64,000 nt of DNA from Saccostrea echinata (GCF_033153115.1 NW_026889761.1:9176001-9240000); one strand, 5' to 3'. Counted from the stretch's first letter, positions 12,860 to 38,262 are shown. Made by a program: numbers and translations. The notes: generated by a model not told the origin, from the letters alone.

Positions 12860-15815
12860 CAGCTTATGAGGCTGACTTACGTCACCTCCAATGATTACCC
12901 CAAATGGTCGCGCATGTGACGTTTACAGTTGTTCTGCAAAAAACTGTAAAATCTGTGACATTTTGATTTCTAACACTTCTTTTACTAGTAGTCTTACTGG
13001 ACAGAGCTTCTATACCAAAACTTGGGAAAATCTGAACTGCAAATCTTCTAATGTTGTCTACGGAATAGAATGTAATCTTTGTGGACTTATTTATGTTGGT
13101 GAAACCAAGGGTTCACTTCATAAAAAAATATCGGGTCACAGATTTCAAATAAACAACGGGAGCCAGCAGCTTCTCTTCAAGCATTTTAATTTACCTGATC
13201 ATTCAATTTTGTCAATCAAAGTTAGAATTCTAGAAAAGATTTACCATCATACAAACAGTCCATCATTGAGTACACCTTTCCGTACACAACGAGAAGCATT
13301 TTGGATGAGAAAACTAATGACGGCCTTTCCCTTTTGATGCAATGACAATGTCGATAGTGTTGGGAATCTTTCCAGTCCACAGTGTAACAATATCAATGTG
13401 ATGGGACTTTTCAACCATAAACAGAGACGTAAACGTAGTCATGGGCATCGGTCTTACAATAAAATTTTAATACACGATGTCTCTTTTGATTCGTTACTAC
13501 CTTATGTAAATCTACAGTTAGGTATTCATCACATTCGCACCAAACTTTACGCTGTCCATTTGAAACTTTTGAGTAGTCTACTTGAAAAGGTCAAGAAAAG
13601 TCCATTTTTTGATTCCTCGACACCAGAATACAGGCTCGGATCTGTGAGATTATGGATATTGCAAATTATAGGCTATTAAAACCACCACGTTTTACAGAAA
13701 AAAATGCAGCTAAAACAAACAGTTTTTTCCTTAAACTCCAATATGGCAACAAAGGAATTGACGCGGTTAAGATAAGTAATATTCTAAATCACAAAAGGGT
13801 CCAGTCTTGTATTTCACCATATTTCAAGTTGAGGACTACAACTTGTATTTCCTACAAATATACATCGACTATTGCTTCCAAACTTTTTCATTACAAGAAA
13901 ATTTTACAGGGCCTGGATATCGAATATTTGAAACATAATTCTCCTTCGTGTTCATGTTCTTCTTCACCCTATAACTATAGTAATGCTGGACACGTTATTA
14001 CTGATGACTTAAATATAGTTAATAATAAGGACCTTAGATCACTAATTTTAAAAGGTCCTAAATATAAGGAACTCCGATCCTTTAACTGGCGTCATAATGT
14101 CATACATATTATGGGTTCTGTAGAGGATTACGCCAGGCGTTGGGTCAGACATGAAAAAGACCTTGACACTTTGTCAGAATGGATTAAATGTATCAGATAT
14201 ATGTTAAAATCTCGCATTAAACGATTGAGGGGCAGTATGAAAACCATCTATCCTTCTGTAATCAATGATTCAGAAGAGAAAAAAGGAATATTAGGTAGAT
14301 TACACGATCAGAACGTACTGGTCCCTGCTGACAAAGCAGGTAACAACAATATCTTTGTTTGTAAGGCTCATTATATAAATTGTATTTTAGAGGAACTGGG
14401 ATTTAATTCTACAAGTGTTAGTCCAACTTATACCCATAGCTCCCTTTCTAAGGAGGAAATTCTTAAATATCATATGTCAGTTTTGAATATTTTAAATATT
14501 CCCAACAACCAAAATGAATTTGAATTATCATATCTTTATTGGATTCCGAAATCTCATACAATTCCTTACAAACAAAGTTACTCCTCAATGTTACTCCTCA
14601 CTAAGATATTAACAGTAGTGAAGGGGAAACTTCAAGAGTACTGTGCAACAATATATTCGAGAAGTGGTGTAAATCAGATGTAGATACTAAAAAATTTCAA
14701 GGAACATTTCAACATTTTACCAAAATCAACAACATAAAAACTTACGACTTTTCAACTTCATATACAAGTATTCCCCACGATAAATGAAAGTCCTGACTTT
14801 CTGAAAACGTTGACAACTACTTTTTCAATAAAAATGGAACTCGTAAATGTACTTACCTTTGCAAAATTACATTGTTAAAAAACAATCTGATTGTACACAC
14901 AAGTACTCTGAAGTTGACATTAAAAAGATGCTCGAGTTTCTGATTGAAAATATCTATGTGGTTTTTGGAGACCAGGTCTTCCCATGGAATTCCAATGGGT
15001 ACCAATTACTCCGTTATTAGCAAACCTATTTTTGTATTCATACGAATCGGAATTTGTTCAAAATCTTTTACGTGAAAAGAAGAAAAGACTTGATGTGGCC
15101 TTCAACTCGACATTTAGATATATCGACGACGTATTGTCAATTAACAATGTTATTTCCATTCTTATGTCGACACAATATATCCCGGTGAGCTTGAGATAAA
15201 AGATACCACAGAGTCTGACACATCTGTGTCATATTTGGATATTTTATTAGAAAAAGACGTTAATGGTAATCTAACAACATAGCTTAATGGTAAACGTGAT
15301 GATTTTAACTTTTCAATCGTCATCTTCTCATACCTATGCAACAATATACCCTTATCACCTGCATACGGGGTTAATATCTCTCAGTTGATTCGATACGCAA
15401 GAGCATGCTCTACGTATGAACAATTTCTAAAAAGAGGAAAGTTATTGACAAACAAGTTGATGAAACAAGAATATGAGCAGTCTCGTTTAAAGTCATCATT
15501 ACGTAAGTTCTATGGTCGATACAATGACTTTGTCAGCAAATACAATCTATCATTAAGTCAAATGCTGACTGACTTTTTCATACTTATTTTTAGTCCATTA
15601 TTTACACACTGAATTGTCGATGGATTTTTTCGTTATTTCCCGATCATGACAAGGAGCACACGGCAGATGTGACCGGTCGGCAGAGGATGCTCACTCCTCC
15701 ATGGCACCTGATCCCACCTCTGATGTCTTAGAGGTCCGTGTTTCCTCTGCTCCTATTTTGTAATGTTTAATGGACTTTTGAGCTCGAATACTGTTCGTTA
15801 TCTCCACATATTTCA
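12860..15815 (+). mobile_element. Near-full-length degenerate Naiad-clade Penelope-like retrotransposon (N-terminal GIY-YIG endonuclease, CxC linker, RT)
   Basis: ORF fragments in order: CSAKNCKIC and VYGIECNLCGLIYVGET (GIY-YIG with CCHH ligands); linker PSCSCSSSPY (CxC); RT motifs PADKAGNN, YWIPK, KTYDFST, GIPMGT..PLLANLFLY, FRYIDDVL, YLDI; multiple stops and frameshifts; conserved 3' UTR. Confidence 0.92.
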
Positions 15816-26113: not shown

Positions 26114-28575
26114 TGAAATATTGAGATAACGAACAGTATTCAAGGTCAAAGTCCATTAAAAATATACAAATCGGGAGCAGAGCAAACGCGGACGTCCAAA
26201 AACATCAGAGGTGGGATTGGATGCAATGGAGGAGAGAGCAATACTTGCCGACCAGTCGCACACGTCATGTGCTCCTTGTCATGATCGGGAAATAACGGGA
26301 AAATCGGCCGACAATTCAGACTGTTGATATTCTTGTTTCATCAACTTGTTTGTCAATAACTTACCTTGTTTTAGGAATTTTTCATACGTAGAGCATGCTC
26401 TTGCGTATCGAATAAACTGAGAGATATACACCCCATATATAGGTGATAAGGGTATATTGCTGCATAAGTAAGGGAAGTTGACAATTGAAAAGTTAAAGTC
26501 ATCACGTTTATCATGAAGCTTTGTTGTTAGATAACCATTAGCGTCTTTTTCTTGTAAAATATCCAAATATAAAACAGTATTAGACTCTGTGGTATCTTTT
26601 ATTTCAAGCTCACCGTGATATATCGTATCGACATATGGATGGAAATACCATATGGCGGGTTTTCTTGGCAGGTGTAAAATTTGGCGTTTTGCTTGGCTAA
26701 GGGTATGCCAATAATTTTGGCGTAATTTATTTTCGCGGGCACAGGGTTCCAACTCATTGCAAAAAAGCACTAATAAGAACATTGAATATTTTAGCGATTA
26801 AAATTTTAGGGGAGTACTACCAAAACGCCAAAAATAAGCCAAAATTAGCACCCCCGCTAAAATAACCCGCTATACGGCAACAATTGTTAATTGTTAATAC
26901 GTCGTTGGTATATCCAAATATATTTTTTCTCATGTATAAGATTTTGAATAAATTCTTACATATGAATACAAAAATAGGTCTGCTAACAACGGGGCTCAGT
27001 TGGTACCCATAGAAATTCCAATAGATTGTTGGAAGACCTTGTCTCCAAAAAAAAAAAAAAAACACAGATATTGTTAATCAAGAACTCAAGCATCTTTTTA
27101 ATTTCAACTTCAGGGCACTTGTGTGTACAATCAGAATGTTTTTTTTTTTAAAATAATTTTGCAGAAGACCATTGACAAAGCAGCTGTCAATATCAAAAAG
27201 CATTGACTTTAATTTATCGTTGGGAATGGTTGTATAGAGAGTTGAAAACTCGTAAGTTTTTATGTTATTGATTTTGGTAAAATTTTGTGATTTCAAATTT
27301 TCCAAAAGATCTCTGAAAGTTTTAAGTATCCATATCAGATTTACCCCACTTCTCAAATATATTATTGCACGGTACTCCTGAAGTTTCTCTTTCACTGCTG
27401 TTAATATTTTAGTGATGAGAAAAGAAAGAGGCTTGGTAGAACATTTCCTGGAACCCGATATGTATCTTTGTTTGTAAGGATTTTTATGAAGTTTTGGAAT
27501 CCAATATAAATATGGTAATTCAAATTCATTTTAGTGGTTGGGAATATTAAAAAAATATTCAAAACTGTCATATGAATAAGAATGAAATAAGAATTTCCTC
27601 CTTAGAAAGGGCGCTATGGGTATAAGTTGGATTACCACTTTTAGAATTAAATCCAAGTTCTCCTAAAATACTATTAAAATAATGAGCCTTACAAACAACG
27701 ACAATGTTGTTACCTGCTTTGTCAGCTGGGATCAGCACATACTGATCATGTAGTCTATTTTTTTCACTTCTGAATTATTAAACACAGAAAGATAGTTGTT
27801 TTTATATTGCCCCTCAATCGTTTAATTTGGAATACATCTGATACATTTAATCCATTCTGACAAAGTGTCAAGGTCTTCTTTTTCATGTCTGGCTCATTGC
27901 CTGGCATAATCTTCCACAGGATGTATAATATTCATGAAATTATGATTCCAGTTGAAAGATCGGGGTCCCCTAAATTTTGGCCCTTTAAAAATAAGTGATT
28001 TAAGGTCCTTATTATAATCATTAACTATATTTAAGTCATCATTAATAACGTGCCCAGCAGGACTATAGTTGTAGGGTGAAGAAGAACATGAAACATGATG
28101 GAGGATTATATTTCAGATGCCCAATATCAAGGCTCTGTAATGTTTTCTTAATTAAAACATTTGGAAGCAATAATCAATGTATATTTATAGGAAATACAGG
28201 GTGTAGTCATCAATTGGAAATATGGTGGTATACAAGACAGGACCCTTGTGTGATTGAGAATATTACTTTTATTAACCGCGTCAATTTTTTTATTGGCATA
28301 TTAAAAATTAAGGAAAAAAGGGTAGTTTTAGCTGTATTTTCCTCCGTAAAACATTGGTTTTTAAAAGCCCATGATTTGCAATATTCATAGCCACAGACCC
28401 GAGCCTGTATTCTGGTGTTTAGGAATCTATATGGACTTTCCTTGACTTATACAAATAGACTATTCAAAACTTTTCAAAGGGACAGAGTAAAGTTTGGTTC
28501 GAATGTGATAAAGGCTTAACTGTTGATTTACATAAGGTAGTAGTGAATCAAAGGAGACGTGTATAAAAATTTATT
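26114..28575 (-). mobile_element. Degenerate Naiad copy (subfamily A): linker + RT + 3' UTR
   Basis: ORF pieces KEKLQEY..RSGVN..KTYEFSTLYTTIP and YLDIL..DKRDDFNF..RYARACS; colinear with ~13470-15815. Confidence 0.9.
26648..26877. mobile_element. MITE nested in the Naiad RT region
   Basis: TIR ccatatggcgggtt / aacccgctatacgg, flanks ta/ca; the RT sequence is continuous across it. Confidence 0.7.
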
Positions 28576-28599
28576 GTAAAGTTTATATGTTATCTGTTT

Positions 28600-29320
28600 G
28601 ATCTTTGGGAGTTTTAATTACAATAATACGCCCTGATGTAGATGACATTCTTCGAGACCATGAACTAATTAGTAATTTCATTAATTTTTGGCTTAAAATT
28701 CGGCTCATACATATCTTTATTTCTAAATTCACAAAGTGTGTAATACCCAAGACTGTAAACGAATCTTGACACCATTAAGGTTTTCAAAATCTTTTTAAAA
28801 ACGCATTTAGTTTTTTCAAAGTTTGGTTTTAATCCTGAATATTTTGCGTATTCCTCTACAAGTGATAATGCTGACTTAAGTGAATCTTTGGTTCCTTTTG
28901 ATAGTAGGGCTGTGTCATCTGTATATTGCAATAATTTATATTCTTTATCATTTACAATAAATCCTTAATTAATATATTATTTCTTATCATTATGCCCATT
29001 ATCTCTGCACAAAGGAAAAAAGATACGAAAAATTAGGATCACATTGTCTGCATCCCTCGCCCATCCTACAGAATTCTAAAAAAATACCATTTTTAATAAT
29101 AAATAGTTTTGCCTCATTAAATAGAGTTCTTACAGCATTTTGGAAATTTTCACCAAAATTGAAGAAAGTTAAAACTTTCAAACTTTTAAATTTTCACAAA
29201 ACTGAGTCAAATGCCTTTTCAAAATCTAGTAAGAGAACCAATCCTGGAGTATTACTTTCATTACAATATTGAATGATATCAAAAAGTAGTCTAGCATTTT
29301 CTCCTATATATCTTCCTCCT
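28600..29320 (-). mobile_element. Non-LTR retrotransposon (Tx1/L1-like) RT relic
   Basis: GRYIGENARLLFD..GLVLLLDFEKAFDSV, GCRQCDP (for GCRQGDP), QYTDDT (for YADD), SGLKPNFEKT. Confidence 0.8.
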
Positions 29321-29595
29321 TTGGGTAGAATAGAAATAATTCCTTGAATTTGTGATTTTGAAAGATTGCCAGAATCAAGACTGCATTTAAAAGAGTGAAA
29401 TAAATAGGTTCAAATAGATTCCAATATCAGACCAAAACAAAAAAAAAAAAAAATAAAAATTCTGTAAAGAACCCATCTTTTTCCGGTCATTTTTAAATGA
29501 TTTTAATACGTTAACATGACATAGAAATAACAAAAGTATAATGAATAACATGAAACAAATTCACTCAAACTAGACTAGTCGGCAAATTACTCATA

Positions 29596-32500
29596 TCAGT
29601 TTGGAAAAATAATATTGAGTTGAGATACAACTTCAAATATTGTGGGTCTTTGTTTGGGGTTTGGATTCAAGCTTTTCCGAATTAAATTGTCCACTTCTCC
29701 CCAGTTTCGTCTTAAGATTTTGTCTTCCACAAATCTCCCGGGATTTATACGCTCACCATTAATCAATTCCCATAGTGTAAGTCCGAATGAATATATATCG
29801 GATGCTTTGGTATGTAAAAATATCGAGGAATCTCGAAGTTCTGGAGCCAAATATATCAATGTTCCGCGACCAAGAATTGTCTGGACAGTATCAATGTGTT
29901 TTGAATGTCCTACGTCACAGATAACAACATTGTCGTCATCATCAACCTAAAAGAATTCCATATTCAATGAAATAGCTTAATTAAAAGAATGAGTTACAAA
30001 AAAGATTAATTTTGCATCAACACATAAATCTGCTTTGAAATATCTGAAATGAAAGATCATCTTGGATCTTTTTGTTGTACTTTCAAATTACTAGAAAACA
30101 GGCTTATAACAAAGTGCTAAGGAAAGCAATTTTCTTTCGCTATAATATCATTCGTTATATCCGTTTAGTTCATAATATGCTTTAAAACTTTCGAAAAATC
30201 ACTTCGCTGTAATCCTGATTTATTTTAAGAGTGTTCACTGTAACCTTGTTTTACTGTATATACTCAGAATTGAAAAAAACCCTGTAAAAATGAAAGGAAA
30301 TAAAGTAGTTCATACCAAATAGTTGGAGAGTTTAACATCTCTGTGTATAACTTGATGTTTGTGGAGAAATCGAAGTCCTCGTGCAGCTGCTTTTGCATAT
30401 TTGATTCTTCTGATTAGGTCAGCACATTTAAGTACATCTACAAGGCTGCCTCTGTACCTCTTCATAACAAGTTGTAAATTATAATGGCCCTTTTCAACGT
30501 GACCAGCGGAGCCTTCATAATGTACAAAGAAAGGAAAATCTTCATCAGCTTTCTTCAACGACAAATGTCTAAAAATGAAACAAAGATAACTGTGAATAAT
30601 ATCTGCACTTATATATTTGTGAACATTCAATTATCTTTTATGTTGATTTGTTTTTAAACACCTCTGTATCAAAATAAGATAAAATATTGGACACACTCAC
30701 TTTAACAAATATCTTTCCCGAAAAACTGAGGAGTCGCAAGGTAAGGATGTTTTATCGCCCCCTTTCTCCTGTGTTGATCCCTCCGCGCATGTTCCTCGGA
30801 GTTTCATTTGAATTTCCTTTACGGCATACTTTTCAATTTTTTGCGATTTTATTGTAGCTTTATAAACATTTACTTTCAGATTATGTTGACTTATTCCTTG
30901 GTCATAGTGCACTATTATCTCATCTGAGGAAAATTCATGTTGCATAATGGAACCAACATAGACGTCCCAAAGACTTTTGGCGATGTCATTAAATCTCCTA
31001 GAAACGGACGAGCGATCTGTGTTTCCCTCTGACGAAGCAAAATTTTTGTTTTGGTTTAGAATATTTACAAGTTCAATTCTATGTCTATTCATTTCTTGAA
31101 CAATCTTATTTAACTTACAGTCCATATTTTCTTTGATTTTGACCACCACCTTTTTGATGAGATTTTGTTTAGATATGCTATCATTCTCCATTATTGACGC
31201 TGCAAATTCGTAGATGGCAAAAGCAGCTATTCCCAGTCCAACAGGCCATAGAAATAGTGCAACAAACGGTAAGACGATCTTGTCGTTATAAAACAAGGAA
31301 TTCTCATCTTGTGTTACGGTTCCTTGAAATTTCCCGTATATCAGTTTTTCTTGAATTTCTTTCCTTAGCCTTGTCAATGTGTTTTCCATCTCTATTTCAC
31401 AAGCCTGTTGAAAACTTTTAAGGGCGGGGCTTATTCTATCCCTCAAGGACATTACATCCGTAATTGTAAGTTCGTCCATTCGTATTTCATGATCTAAATA
31501 TCTACTTATCTTGTCTTCGTATATCTTTTGAATGTTTTTCATTTCATTCGTTATGCTTGAATCAGTTGTCAAACGATCAAGAAAAGAAAATACATTTTCT
31601 AAGGATTCATGAGTTTTAGCGTCAATCCGAATAACATCTTCCATTGATTTCCATTGGTTTCCAAATTTCATAAAGGCGGACGTACATTCAAGCAAACGTG
31701 TTAACCACCTGTATATATATAGAGAGAGAGAGAGGAAAAAATTCAAACTTGTTCAGAAGTTTGCACATTTAAAGATGCACATATTACTTTCGTATACATA
31801 CATATATTTACATCAGTATTCAATTACATAATTTAGTTATAATATATCTATTTCCGTGTATTCCTAAAAATGCTAAAAAAGAGGAAATTATCAAATTATC
31901 AAATTAAAAAAAACGTTCTAATGAAAATTATGATTGATTTTGACTTTTTAAATCTGGTTTCGCTAATTTTTGTGTCTTTCCCAGACACTAAAACATGTGC
32001 ATCTTTTGTCTTTTGAAAACGTCATTTCATCCTATATCAACTTCCGAATAAAATTTATATACCTATCATTTTTTGATTATGTGGGGAGATTTGGTAATCA
32101 AATAACTAATTCAAAAATTTTTTTGCAAAGCCTGGAGGAAAAAAGCAAGTATAAAATAATGCACATTTGAACGCTGATATGTGAAGTATAAGATTTATGT
32201 AGACATGCAATGTTAAAAACATTCTATTTCAAAATCGTAAATTCCCCATTTTCGATAAAAAAAATCAAATTTGAATAGCTTTGAGTAAAAAAAGTACTAC
32301 ACTGCGTTACGTCGCAGATCAGTAGCCCTTTTCACAAAAAATCTTAAGTTTTTACATAGGATTTTAACTTAAGAATCTCTTACGACAAATCTTAGGTGCG
32401 TTTCACGAACGCATTCGTAGCAGATTGAACTTAAGATTTTACTTACGACAGACTTCATCCCTAGCAACGACTTCAATATGCTTTATTATCCTTAAATCAA

Positions 32501-35500
32501 TGGGTGAAAATAAAAATAAAACTTAGTTTTCAACATATGTCAGCATAACAAACATTACTGACTACAAATATCGAATGCAATCGTTTGTGAAGCAGGGAAG
32601 TTTAAAATCTGACGTCACAATCACAAGTCTGACGAAAATCTTAAGTGAAACTTCAATCGTAAATATTTTGTAGTGAATTTCATTTAAAATTTCGACATTG
32701 ATTGTGATAAAAATATAAAATATTAATGGAAATTGCTTTAAAAAGTTCAATTTAATGTGTATTTTGGTTTTTGTGGTTATATTTTTACAATTAAATCTGT
32801 TTTAAAATACTTAAGAGAGGGTTGGGGCACTCGTAAAGTTACGACCAATTTTGCACTTAAGAATTTCTTAAGAATTTTTGTGAAAACGATATTTATCATA
32901 AGTTTTCACTTAAGATAAAAATATGTCGTAAGATTTTTTGTGAAAAGATCCACAGATTACTTACATGCAGTGCTCCTCCAATAACAAGCGTTCAGATTTC
33001 ATTAAGAAATCTACGATATCTCTCTGAAGATTCATCAAGGTATTTGCCCTAGATTTCATCTAAAAATACACGTATAAAAAGTAAAACTTCCTAGACAAAG
33101 TAATAGCTATAAATTTATGATCAGGTATCATTAAATACTACCTTACCTACTGTGTAATAATGCCGTGTGATATGAGTTAAGTAAATTTAAATTTCCTTTG
33201 ATGATTTAATACTAGTACTCTAATTTTGTGCTGTATACAGTGTCCTCATAAATGTCTTCCCGGAAATCTAGAATGGCGATATTTGCAAACAATTGTAAAC
33301 TAAATTTGTAATACACCTAGAATCCAAAAATAAATATCTAGATTTTGGATATTCGAGGATATACAATTTATATGAATTTGAACATATGATTACCGGTATT
33401 CACATAGTTGCGTACAAAACTGTTCTTTTCCAATTCATATTTATGAATCTATTATACATGTATATACTTAGGGCTTTCAATTCAATATTTAGATAAGTTT
33501 TTATCAGTTAGCAATATTCGTTTCAATCATACTGTTGATTCGATATATTTCACTGAACTCGAAATGAATGACAGAGTCGGTTGCTTGAGTAAGACATTTC
33601 ATTATTAACTTCCTTTATTTATGTAGCAGAGTACTCTATCACCTGCATGTGGTGTTTATGTCTCCAGGTTGATTCGATACGCAATGGTATGTTCTGCGTA
33701 AAAACAATTTCTAAGCAGAGATAGGTTACTGACAAATAAGTTGATGTTTCAAGGATATCAAAAATCATGTTTGCAGTTCAACATTTCGCAAATTCAAAAT
33801 TCGATATAATGAACTTGCTTGAAATTACAGCCAGTCATTAGGACGAATGTTGAATGACGTATTGAGTGCAAACTATTGAGGAATTCTTTTCATACTGAAT
33901 TGTCAATGGATTACTCCATTTACCCGAACCAAGACAAAGGGTTTACGGGGATGTGACCAGTTGACAGGAGATGATTACTCCTCCATGACGCCTGATCCTT
34001 CCTCTTATATTTTTAAAAGTCATCGTTTGTTCTGCCTTCAACATGCATTGTATAATTGAACTTTTGAGCATGATAGCTATATGTTATCTTCAATTTTCAC
34101 TGTTTACTTCTTTAATCATATCTGTTTCATCTCAAGAACAGCTTGTAATTCATATGAGATAAAACACTACTTATAACCAAACAACCATTGCATTTATTCC
34201 ATGGGATGTTGAAATCTTTAAAACACGTGTAGAAATGGTACCAACCTCTGTCATATCGTCAATGAAAATGATCTGTTTCCTCACCACCATTGGCCAACTC
34301 ATTTGAATTCTGGCAAGTATCTTGTCTGTAAGATCCGATTTTCTTCTCTCGTCTTTACTGATACTTTTTGGGCAGTTTGTACAGACAAACAGTGCTGTCT
34401 GAGGATCCAAAGTTGAATTTTCCAATGCGATTACATCAGATATATCAGACATCAACTTTTGCAGCTACCATCAGTGGACATAATATAAAACACAAGAGAT
34501 GAGATATGAAGATATTACCGATGGTGATAATGATGATGTTGTTATCTATTTAGAAATTCATTTTCAAAAGATATTCTGCATACTTTTAGCTTTTGAAAGA
34601 CTCTTTACTATTTTAAAATTAAAACAAGTAGCAGGCTATATGGTTGAATTGTAACAACACTCACCGTAGGTCCGTGTATTCCATGATCTCTGTGTATGTC
34701 AATCATGAATATGAATGTATGGCACTTGTCAACATTTCGAAGATAAGGCTGAAACAATTCTTGATGGTCCGGATCGACGCCAGGGAAATCCATAAATATA
34801 ATGGGTAGTTTTCCCCTCCTCTGAAAGTTAGGAATTCAAAATTGCTTTTTGAGCGATAAAAAGACCTACGCTTCTACAAAGTTATAATAATCTTTTTTTT
34901 AGAAAAAAATTGATGTGTCTAGCTAGAAAGGAATAACTAGAATTTTCTTTCACGTTGCAGCGACAGGGTCAGAGATAAGTGATTGTGTATCGGCTGAAAT
35001 ACCCTCAGCAAGAACAAATGATTTGAAGTATAACGTTGCAGTAGTATTTAGAAAGCAATTGAAAACAGTTTATCTCGGGGTGTTATCACAATTAACACTA
35101 GCTTGTAGCAGATTATAATTACTCAAAATAGAAAATCATATAAATAAGTCAATTAGATTTAAATCAGAACTCACAGGACTTATAATTTCCAACAAGTCAG
35201 ATGCCACATCAATACTACCACTGGTATGTCGTCCCTATAATAATATTCAAAGTACATGTATTCAACAAATATGGTCTAGCCTATCTCTATGCACTTCTTT
35301 TTGATATTTGAGATGGAGCTGGTTAGGTATCCAATAATAATTTTGGATTATACAAGTCAGTTTGTTGCAAAATGAACTTTCAAATTGAATTTCATAAATA
35401 AAAATCTTGGATTTTATCTCTAACGAAGGAAAAAAAACATGTGGGAGAAAACTACCAAAGTTTTGAAACGTGCTGCCAATTTCATTTCTTTCACATGTTT

Positions 35501-38104
35501 TAAGACTTACCGGTTCCTTAAGCTCTGTCTGATGCATACTCTGAAAACAGAAACAGATTTGTAGCTAGGAAATCAAAACTATGACAAAGGTGTTTTTTCT
35601 TTTCTTTAAGTTGTTCAATATATTTTTTTCTTTTGAAATAATGAAGAAATAATGCCTTTTGATAAATTATAATCCATTTTATTTCATTTTTATTTATTTA
35701 GTCAAATTTATTTGTAAATAATTAAGTTGTAAACATACGCACCACTGTACAAAAATTTGACAATTTTGCAAGTACTAGTACTTAAAGATGTATTAATAAT
35801 TTGTAAAATATTGTAAAAGTACTATTTCTCGAGTATTTTTTTAAAAGTAATGGTATTTTCCTTAACTTGTTCCAATTGGGACTTACAGGATAGTCTTTAC
35901 AATCATTAATAGAAAATAGGTTCCAACATCATGTATTAGTATTAAATGGTTTTATTAAAATCTGTCTAATGTAGAGGAAGATTTGTTGAAAGCTAATACC
36001 TTGAAAATCGTCAATGGCCAGTATATTTCGACTTTTGTAACACTGTTTTGATTATCGGTTTTGTTTCTAATACAGGTTTGAATTCTTTTCCATTCGGCAG
36101 AATTGCAGTCTGGTGTTAGAATGATATCTATACGTTGTCCTGTTCCGTAATGTATGATCCCTAGTCTAGTTAAACGAAGTAATTTTGATAAATTAATTCT
36201 TTTCATTGCAGAGAAATGTGAAGATGTTAAAATTAATTTCATGATTTACAATTTTAAAAAATGCTCAAATTTTAATGGTTTACATATTACTTCACATCTT
36301 TATTTCTAAAGTTGTCTCACATCAAACAAAGGCTTAACTTTTCCTAAAACTTATCTATGTTGTTTTCAACCAATTTCTATGTTCAGTCAAAATTGTAGAC
36401 ATATATACCTCACTGGATTATTGTGAACCTCACAGAGAACGTTTGTACAGCTTCCGTGGTCGGTGGGTAAGTAGTCTCCCCCCATCAGTAAGTTCAGAAA
36501 GGTCGACTTACCAACTGCTACCTCTCCTACATGTATAATATAGTACAAGTTATATTACCATTATATAAGTGATTTTGTCTCTGCAATCTGATTGGTTAAA
36601 TTCCATTGGCTTGCAAAAATATTCCATACTAGCATGTAACACTTCATATCTTACGTCTATCACATTAATTCAAAGTGTTAAGAAAAGAAAGATTTATTGT
36701 CAATTAACAATTATTATTTCCATTCTTATGTCGATACGATATATCCCGGTGAGCTTGAGATAAAAGATACTACAGAGTCTGACACATCTGTTTCATATTT
36801 GGATAGTTTACTTGAAAAAGGCGTTAATGGTAATCTAACAACCAAGCTTTATGATAAACGTGATGACTTTTACTTTTCAATCGTCAGCTTCCCTTACTTA
36901 TGCAGCAATATACCTTCATCACCTGCATACGGGGTTTATATCTCTCAGTTGATTCGATACGGAAGAGTATGCTCTACGTATGCAGAATTTCTAAAACGAG
37001 GTAAATTATTGACAAACAAGTTGATGAAACAAGAATATCAGCAGTCTCGTTTAAATTCATCACTTCGTAAGTTCTATGGTCGATACAATGACCTTGTCAG
37101 CAAATACAATTTATCATTGAGTCAAATGCTGACGGACGTTTTTCATACTAATTGTTAGGTCATTATTTACACACTGAATTGTCGACGGATTTTCCCGTTA
37201 TTTCCCGATCATGATAAGGAGCACACGGCGGGTGTGACCGGTCGGCAGGGGATGCTCACTGCTTCATGGCACCTGATCCCACCTCTGATGTTTTGGAGGT
37301 CCGTGTTTGCTCTGCACCTATTTTGTAATGTTTAATGGACTTTTGAGCTAGAATACTGTTCGTTATCTCCATATATTTCATTTACGACCTGTCTCTTTGT
37401 TGAATGAACTAAATTGAAAATACTTCAAGGTCATTAAAATAGAACACAATTTTTATAAAGGCTTAAATCAGAGAACGACAGCGGAAGTGGGTTAGTCTGC
37501 AGATAAACTGACATTAATGTCCAATGTCAGTCTTGACTAGTTTGTACTTCACTTTTGAGAAAAGGGTACCATATTTGGTCATACCTGCTATGTAAACACG
37601 TAGCTCACGCTGACCTTCTTTTAAGCTTTCCATTCTTCTCTGTAGAACCTCTGTGATTGTTATACGTGAGTCCTTCATCATATGGTACTGTAGAGTTAGT
37701 TTCTCCAGCGTGTCCAGCTGACTCTCAGTAAACGCTTCATCGGCCTCTTTGTACAACTTATAGCATTTGTTGTATTTAGCATCAGAGAACATTGACCATA
37801 TTCTTTCCTGTGAATAATAATTGGTAAGTATAGATATTTCACCTAGTCTCATATTACTATCTTTCCAATATTCCTTTGCAATTCTTAGACAATATAATTT
37901 ACAAGAAAAAATACAATGTTATTCATTCTAATACCGATTTGAATTTGAAAAATGTTTGAATCGATATGGATGAAACTATTAAATACCCCTAAAGGAATAT
38001 GTCAGATTGTGGGAGAATTTTAAGATGTACACATCCAAGAAAAGTCGTATCAAAGGGTACAAAGGAGAAAAATGATTTCTCGGCGATGAAAACAATATAC
38101 ATTC

Positions 38105-38174
<70 letters not shown>

Positions 38175-38262
38175 TATATATTCCATTATTATCTTTATAT
38201 TATTTCTGTCAGACAAAATTACCATTCTATATACTTACTGCAGGGTCATCTTCACTAGCCAT
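29596..38262 (-). CDS. Dynamin-like GTPase / hydrophobic segment / protein kinase fusion (DSTYK/Dusty-like), ~900 aa, 12 coding exons
   Basis: Exons 38262-38239, 37807-37585, 36526-36409, 36165-36000, 35540-35511, 35234-35175, 34820-34665, 34464-34246, 33059-32965, 31708-30701, 30568-30316, 29946-29596; all GT-AG and phase-compatible (2703 nt). Start in aaccATGG context. G1 GEVAVGKST, G2 LPTDHGSCT, G3 DFPG; kinase YAVK, HRDVKLSN, DVG, GTLIYLAPE, SDIYSFG. A possible alternative first coding exon lies at 39504-39439. Confidence 0.87.
32323..32952. mobile_element. PIF/Harbinger-type MITE in a kinase-gene intron
   Basis: TIR core cttttcacaaaaaatctta/taagattttttgtgaaaag; CAG TSD (32320-32322, 32953-32955). 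Confidence 0.75.
33540..34099 (+). mobile_element. Old 5'-truncated Naiad copy (intronic)
   Basis: ttgattcgatacgca.. RT C-terminus plus a degenerate 3' motif. Confidence 0.8.
36692..37380 (+). mobile_element. Relatively young 5'-truncated Naiad copy (intronic) with an open 153-aa RT C-terminal frame
   Basis: ORF 36697-37158 (YLDS..DKRDDF..RKFYGRY) followed by a well-preserved 3' UTR. Confidence 0.92.
37219..37312 (+). ncRNA. Conserved structured RNA motif in the Naiad 3' UTR (reference copy; present in 11 copies in the window)
   Basis: P1 GAGC.CACGG/CCGUG..GCUC; K-turn-like GGG-UGU-GA/CUGA-UCC arm; P3 CCUCUG/UGGAGG with compensatory variants in other copies. Confidence 0.55.
38108..38169. 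repeat. (TA)n microsatellite
   Basis: Direct inspection; source of the spurious YI-repeat ORFs. Confidence 0.97.

Follow-up and report, generated by a model that had tools for sequence, protein, structure and literature searches.

As the available part of one account has it (PMC5084822), the bacterial dynamin-like protein BDLP is closed when off the membrane and becomes open and oligomeric on it through insertion of a paddle, and the same text describes the role of the Asp in the G4 motif. Among kinases, DSTYK (Dusty, RIPK5/SgK496) resembles the protein described here in its layout, with the kinase at the C-terminus and a long region in front of it, and it has been placed outside RIPK1-7 (PMC9573974). 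In the accessible portion of a zebrafish study, the N-terminal part of DSTYK is assigned to "non-catalytic regions", the protein is found at late endosomes/lysosomes, and its overexpression leaves these organelles enlarged and fused (PMC6981171); the accessible part of a second report states that human DSTYK phosphorylates STING and is located on late-endosome membranes (PMC11933320). Kinase fusions go unmentioned in the available parts of two dynamin surveys (PMC10280142, PMC11789081), one of which leaves out BDLP/mitofusin-type proteins by design, and the word "dynamin" is not present in PMC8195603. No paper describing a family that joins Dynamin_N to a kinase was found in the literature searched, which consisted of listings and the beginnings of abstracts, and absence from print is not thereby established.

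The gene considered here lies in a window of 64,000 nucleotides of Saccostrea echinata DNA (the window being this whole stretch, with coordinates counted from its first letter). It is real and intact, and it is the degenerate oyster representative of a family of dynamin-kinase fusions that is widespread and has apparently gone undescribed. The surprise is limited by the fact that the gene has already been annotated, and its domains called, automatically.

Gene Structure and Transcript Evidence

Six-frame reading together with a listing of splice sites gives a 12-exon gene on the minus strand, running from 38262 to 29596, with its ATG at 38262, one open frame, a TGA ending at 29596 and GT-AG at every exon joint, which bears out the intact 12-exon frame of the preliminary description. 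Splicing exon 8 at the donor 34225 yields exactly the 907-residue NCBI model (XP_061176015.1, LOC133184967, Saccostrea echinata), whose numbering is used below. Three exon-8 donors were tried and the frame stays open with each; the one at 34246 yields 900 residues, dropping seven that are missing from the oyster orthologs; it fits these orthologs better than 34225 and is probably the real donor.

Exon 1 (38239..38262, minus strand, as are all that follow) carries the ATG and residues 1-8 and matches P0001. Exon 2 (37585..37807) encodes N-terminal neck helices and the strand leading into the P-loop, and the intron behind it splits the first glycine of G1 (phase 1). Exon 3 (36409..36526) holds G1 (36504-36526) and the G2 threonine T110 (36444-36446), and by itself scores 29.8 bits against Pfam Dynamin_N. 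The dynamin-type insertion of the G domain lies in exon 4 (36000..36165); the 30-nt exon 5 (35511..35540) starts a low-confidence loop before G3 that takes in the 60-nt exon 6 (35175..35234), and residues 185-205 of the AlphaFold model, in this region, have pLDDT <50. G3, read as DFPG (34779-34790), is in exon 7 (34665..34820), and a degenerate G4, CTNCP (34369-34383), is in exon 8 (34225..34464, with the NCBI donor at 34225 or the donor favoured by ortholog alignment at 34246), after which exon 9 (32965..33059) begins the long neck helix behind the G domain. Exon 10 (30701..31708), which matches nothing else in a search of its own genome, encodes the helical stalk, the hydrophobic segment, return helices and the kinase N-lobe with Lys668 (30817-30819) and the alphaC Glu702; the hydrophobic segment (31195..31278), recognised by hydropathy between stalk helices, has a central Trp-Pro-x-Gly and is a predicted membrane paddle. 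Exon 11 (30316..30568; Pfam Pkinase) runs from the kinase hinge to the catalytic loop, with HRD at 30337-30345, and exon 12 (29596..29946; Pfam Pkinase 42.3 bits) supplies DVG (29908-29916), APE (29839-29847), the C-lobe and the stop.

Retroelement-like repeats lie in intron 2 (36682-37380), in intron 8 (33580-34070) and at 12876-14680 and 26300-29400; weak GIY-YIG and RT matches are seen at 12876-13334 and 28668-28964, and the intron-2 copy matches hundreds of contigs in the sequencing runs compared. Elsewhere in the window, a minus-strand ORF at 1787-2950 has two BIR (IAP) domain matches, and a gene of GPR158/179-like or Cache-domain type, its matches slightly below the Pfam cut-offs, has plus-strand exons over 43913-53241.

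Public contigs from runs presumed to be RNA, with run X4 representing a second organism, join five of the 11 introns at a depth of 2-4: those between exons 4/5, 5/6 (imprecise by a few bases), 6/7, 7/8 and, in one contig, 10/11. By this contig evidence the gene is transcribed at a low level. No contig in these runs bridges the GTPase exons to those of the kinase, and none covers the exon 8/9 joint. A complete 899-residue ortholog, which clusters with Magallana gigas LOC105347395, is carried on a 3,018-base public contig, and since this contig would be too short unless spliced, GTPase and kinase would share one transcript in that ortholog; complete fusion ORFs of the family are found on contigs of 3.0-3.1 kb. 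The early claim that both domains belong to one polypeptide is upheld by the single reading frame and by the 3,018-base contig. Of the three outcomes that the preliminary description named as contrary to it (identity with the single-copy DSTYK ortholog, an N-terminus with no dynamin fold, GTPase and kinase exons in separate transcripts), none was seen.

Predicted Fold

In the AlphaFold2 model of residues 1-630 (40 alignment rows; pLDDT 76, pTM 0.66), N-terminal helices lead into a G domain at about 77-335; beyond it come long helices at 341-495, a low-confidence stretch at 496-538 that contains the hydrophobic segment, and return helices at 551-625. Foldseek placed BDLP (2j69) at the top (E 8.7e-14), then MFN2, Fzo1, a Campylobacter DLP and IniA, and VIA-align against 48,161 chains returned MFN2 (Z 23.0, rmsd 12.7, 369 aligned), Fzo1 (Z 22.5, 5.2, 343), SynDLP (Z 20.9, 3.9, 338), IniA (18.9) and EHD4 (17.8), with small GTPases at Z 13.8 or below. 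A structure search with the full-length model (pLDDT 78, pTM 0.77) retrieved BDLP and then kinases, and in the ESM Atlas residues 1-630 matched bacterial Dynamin_N clusters first (0.94), a mitofusin cluster reaching 0.92; PDB sequence searches gave kinases only among the best 60 matches. On these models a BDLP/mitofusin-like fold is predicted for residues 1-630, and the proposal of such a fold with a hydrophobic segment in the stalk agrees with the Foldseek and VIA-align results.

Matches to truncated constructs of G domain plus neck cover model residues ~5-629 in both searches, which suggests that the helix preceding the kinase folds back into the neck and that the kinase starts there. The kinase is thus predicted to follow immediately on the last neck helix (603-625), an arrangement that would hold it close to the G domain and at a distance from the membrane end. 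The hydrophobic segment is mid-stalk in the chain, where a membrane-inserting segment is expected; it is modelled at pLDDT <50, and the 1-630 and full-length models place it differently. A complex prediction with two copies of residues 5-395, GTP and Mg scored 0.32, 0.00 and 0.00, values that tell neither way on dimer formation.

Catalytic Motifs

On the 907-residue product Pfam finds Dynamin_N at 80-251 (36.7 bits, cut-off 27) and Pkinase at 660-899 (85.4 bits). The GTPase motifs are G1 (GEVAVGKS, 83-90), G2 (T110) and G3 (DFPG, 218-221), the last in the context DFPG-V with no catalytic Gln behind DxxG, as in the dynamin superfamily. The kinase keeps K668, the alphaC E702, HRD (782-784), N789, DVG (802-804, with D802) and APE (825-827), and the hydrophobic segment, which starts at 515, reaches 2.26 over a Kyte-Doolittle 19-mer. 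The dynamin G1, G2 and G3, the hydrophobic segment and the kinase Lys, HRD and APE of the preliminary description are all present, with Dynamin_N over the Pfam cut-off; what it had missed are the CTNCP at G4, an Ala in the P-loop, the missing Gly-rich loop and a dead-looking kinase in Crassostrea virginica.

The G4 motif has neither Lys nor Asp, so that the guanine-reading Asp of N/TKxD is missing. This Asp is kept, in NK/RxD-type form, in 30 of the 36 family rows that cover G4 (some rows of the family alignment being isoforms of one gene), and the six rows without it are oyster and Pinctada. Conservation of the altered motif across oysters suggests that function has changed, more than that the motif has decayed. 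EHDs, GBPs and atlastins likewise deviate at G4, according to the available part of PMC5084822, and the missing Asp therefore weakens the term "GTP-specific" but not the assignment of the fold. The third P-loop position, given in the same partial source as the catalytic Ser in dynamin, is Ala in the window gene and Ser in 14 of 33 family rows. In the kinase, the Gly-rich loop GxGxxG is missing from the window gene and from every aligned oyster ortholog, the pattern being present in 22 of 41 family rows. A hydrophobic 19-mer (KD at least 1.9) is found at the site corresponding to the predicted paddle in 20 of the 37 family rows that cover it, and the other 17 have no strongly hydrophobic segment there.

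The orthologs of S. cucullata, O. edulis and M. gigas, at 60-83% identity, keep G1-G3, K668, E702, HRD, DVG and APE. In the C. virginica ortholog (P0304, LOC111102787) HKD and NVG replace the HRD and DFG-Asp motifs; judged by these motifs its kinase is likely dead, and kinase catalysis would then be dispensable in at least one oyster.

An Invertebrate Family of Dynamin-Kinase Fusions

A family profile search of 1.84 billion proteins gave results crowded by multi-kinase proteins, so that the counts and range are lower bounds: at least 41 of 192 stored proteins match the N-terminal profile, of which 36 include a kinase, and in 30 G1 and a kinase are present together. N-terminal matches and kinases occur in the same proteins, and homology thus runs across both halves. 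Word-index searches returned family proteins as 6 of 44 and 5 of 87 matches, again lower bounds. Organism names, looked up for 30 proteins, place the fusion in the octocoral Dendronephthya, gastropods, bivalves, the brachiopod Lingula, the nemertean Tubulanus, the hemichordate Ptychodera and the amphioxus Branchiostoma. The description of the gene as "lineage-specific" accordingly fails for the architecture, which ranges from cnidarians to amphioxus; only the orthogroup is bivalve-restricted, among the sampled sequences. Invertebrate proteins listed in databases as "Dynamin_N + Pkinase" have the domain order and length (900-1,060 residues) of the window protein, and most keep NKxD and GxGxxG, whereas the window gene's clade is without both. 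Their labels (uncharacterized, DSTYK-like, MAP3K9/12, irlB) leave mislabelled a family that is large in oysters and amphioxus. Amphioxus gene models P0196, P0006 and P0108 have an N-terminal CARD and TIR or a C-terminal trypsin-like domain, the CARD-TIR fusion being known from a single NCBI gene model.

Dynamin_N matches occur at 40 places in the window gene's own genome, and the 39 that lie outside the window were all examined, in 35 stretches of 9.9 kb. A count of paralogs, one check named in the preliminary description, comes to at least 26 further family loci, each with collinear matches to the family profile in at least two exons and many of them clustered; a kinase lies inside the stretch in at least eight of these, three with HRD and five without. 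NKxD and GxGxxG are both kept in paralogs L005, L014 and L016. The G1 intron and two kinase introns are common to the window gene and its paralogs. The genome holds no close copy of the window gene, which has a conserved ortholog across oysters.

The five loci without HRD (L003, L007, L011, L031 (C29 cluster) and L012 (C10)) read HMEL or HLDV instead and are dynamin-pseudokinase fusions. Six others (L006, L013, L020, L021, L025, L030) have a G domain and stalk exon with no kinase elsewhere in their 9.9-kb stretch, and are possibly kinase-less forms. Long ORFs near paralogs were considered as fused effectors and rejected, one being an EHD (L002) and another a Ty3/Gypsy element (L015:2-5379, minus strand; long gag and pol frames), downstream of paralog G-domain exons. 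At L033 and L034 (C33), long ORFs of 876 and 1,205 residues adjoin or contain a different P-loop type, and we take them to be probably very large GTPases.

Given such pseudokinases, one might envision the window protein as a double pseudoenzyme in which neither half turns over substrate, and which serves as a membrane scaffold or as the allosteric partner of active paralogs in hetero-oligomers. Loss of the G4 Asp and of the Gly-rich loop, the C. virginica kinase that is dead by motif, and the replacement of HRD in five of the eight kinase-bearing paralogs are all consistent with this; for IRGs control by heterodimers has been shown, and for BDLPs it has been proposed (PMC5084822, in the part available). 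We nevertheless consider it unlikely, since both the GTPase half (P-loop Lys/Ser, switch-I Thr, DxxG) and the kinase (Lys, Glu, HRD, Asn, Asp) keep these residues in six of seven aligned oyster rows, two of which are models of the window gene itself.

Relation to DSTYK

A separate gene, which we take to be DSTYK by its kinase motifs, was found through a paralog kinase exon at G000:C29:18986179-19016351 (L043-L046, minus strand); it is intact, with 13 exons and 959 open residues, and a stretch resembling a P-loop but lacking the Walker A Lys lies in its second exon. A maximum-likelihood tree was built from 49 kinase domains, 33 of them from the family, 1 from DSTYK and 15 from the outgroup, with P0004 and fragments excluded. 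In it the window kinase groups with oyster orthologs (100/98), then successively with Pinctada (96/90), with other bivalves (99/96) and with a Lingula gene (99/98), lying three starred nodes deep in the family; the family kinases form a single clade (81/90) whose inner nodes are starred. DSTYK, a single row on a long branch, is sister to the family (90/87, not starred). That the window gene is instead the DSTYK ortholog of the oyster, or a gene model joined in error, is thus already contradicted, and we regard it as highly improbable: although NCBI names one S. cucullata ortholog "DSTYK-like" and two kinase introns share place and phase with the C29 gene, that gene exists separately, the window gene nests in the bivalve/brachiopod clade apart from it, and complete fusion ORFs are found on single contigs. 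In the window gene, three paralogs and DSTYK alike, these shared introns follow the alphaC helix in phase 2 and the catalytic loop in phase 0; an intron after the catalytic loop may be common among kinases. The separate gene and the nesting in the tree sustain the earlier view of the window gene as a paralog rather than a DSTYK ortholog.

The N-terminal part of oyster DSTYK is without Walker A (GQNIYTKG at the matching site), DxxG and the hydrophobic segment, and its kinase keeps the Gly-rich loop, unlike the window protein. It has no Pfam match. ESM features link it to Dynamin_N (0.93, 167 of 256 features), a level of 0.9 being reached by 4-10% of shuffles; against the family, hhalign aligns it in register at G1 with E 0.08 and a probability of 0.7%, a score matched by 6 of 60 shuffles in local and 33 of 60 in global mode, and HMMER gives -1.7 bits, under the best shuffles. 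It may be, and we put this forward tentatively, at rather less than an even chance, that an undescribed animal branch of bacterial-dynamin/mitofusin-like proteins was hard-wired to a kinase and that its invertebrate members multiplied as sensors of pathogens or of membrane integrity, some of them pseudokinase or kinase-less forms and others carrying CARD-TIR or a protease, and that human DSTYK is the branch's degenerate survivor with a dynamin-like pseudo-GTPase and stalk. If true, this pseudo-GTPase and stalk would explain the late-endosome location of DSTYK and its endolysosome-fusing effect, and a shared N-terminal fold would give a human kidney-malformation and spastic-paraplegia kinase a testable structural model.

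A Putative Membrane-Docked Switch

By analogy with BDLP, the window protein may be a membrane-docked, nucleotide-gated scaffold or switch that brings its own weak kinases together and activates them, a putative mechanism whose chances we put only just short of even. A closed soluble form would dock on an internal membrane via the hydrophobic segment (residues 515-542); nucleotide binding would open the hinge and favour oligomers, and oligomer formation would cluster or free the kinases hanging on the neck. Because the oyster clade lost the G4 Asp and the kinase Gly-rich loop, nucleotide would be bound with relaxed base specificity, hydrolysis would be slow and phosphorylation weak, and the protein would be more a scaffold and switch than a membrane-bending motor. 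A plain model of a kinase driven by GTP hydrolysis is weakened by the partial degeneration of both enzymes. Against the switch model itself stand the missing G4 Asp and Gly-rich loop, the P-loop Ala, the 17 of 37 relatives without a strongly hydrophobic segment, the low pLDDT of that segment and the lost kinase motifs of C. virginica.

As for the setting, clustered expansion, pseudokinase turnover and fusions to CARD-TIR or a protease in the family suggest stress or innate immunity, which we judge likelier than housekeeping though still a doubtful call; that the window gene is single-copy and conserved in oysters counts against a fast-turning immune gene. The same single conserved ortholog would suit a working membrane remodeller that tethers or fuses endolysosomes or other organelles, with the kinase as accessory regulator, in a housekeeping rather than immune role. 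The nearest folds are indeed fusogens, and DSTYK in excess enlarges and fuses late endosomes/lysosomes (PMC6981171, in its accessible part), but the degenerate G4 and P-loop Ala, together with family-wide expansion and pseudokinase turnover, make a remodeller quite improbable. If the switch reading is true, a dynamin-superfamily membrane domain joined to a kinase converts membrane state directly into phosphorylation; no paper on such coupling through a dynamin-kinase fusion was found in the literature searched.

Comparison with Known Systems

The window protein most resembles the BDLP/mitofusin-Fzo1 branch (2j69, 6jfk, 9kfd, IniA), with which it shares G1-G3 and, by prediction, a G domain, a neck, a stalk that bears a hydrophobic segment midway, and a last helix that turns back to the neck at the C-terminal end. 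It differs in adding a C-terminal kinase, in being without the G4 Lys/Asp, and in its shorter stalk, at 11-16% identity, and, set against mitofusin, it has no Fzo_mitofusin Pfam match. The immune GTPases Mx and GBP belong to the same superfamily but are without a kinase, and MxB scores under BDLP/MFN against the window model (E 1e-7, Z 13.4). Roco proteins (LRRK2, DAPK1) offer a further likeness in having GTPase and kinase in one chain with dimer-linked regulation; their GTPase, however, is a small Ras-like Roc with COR, whereas the best folds for the window protein are large dynamin-type GTPases.
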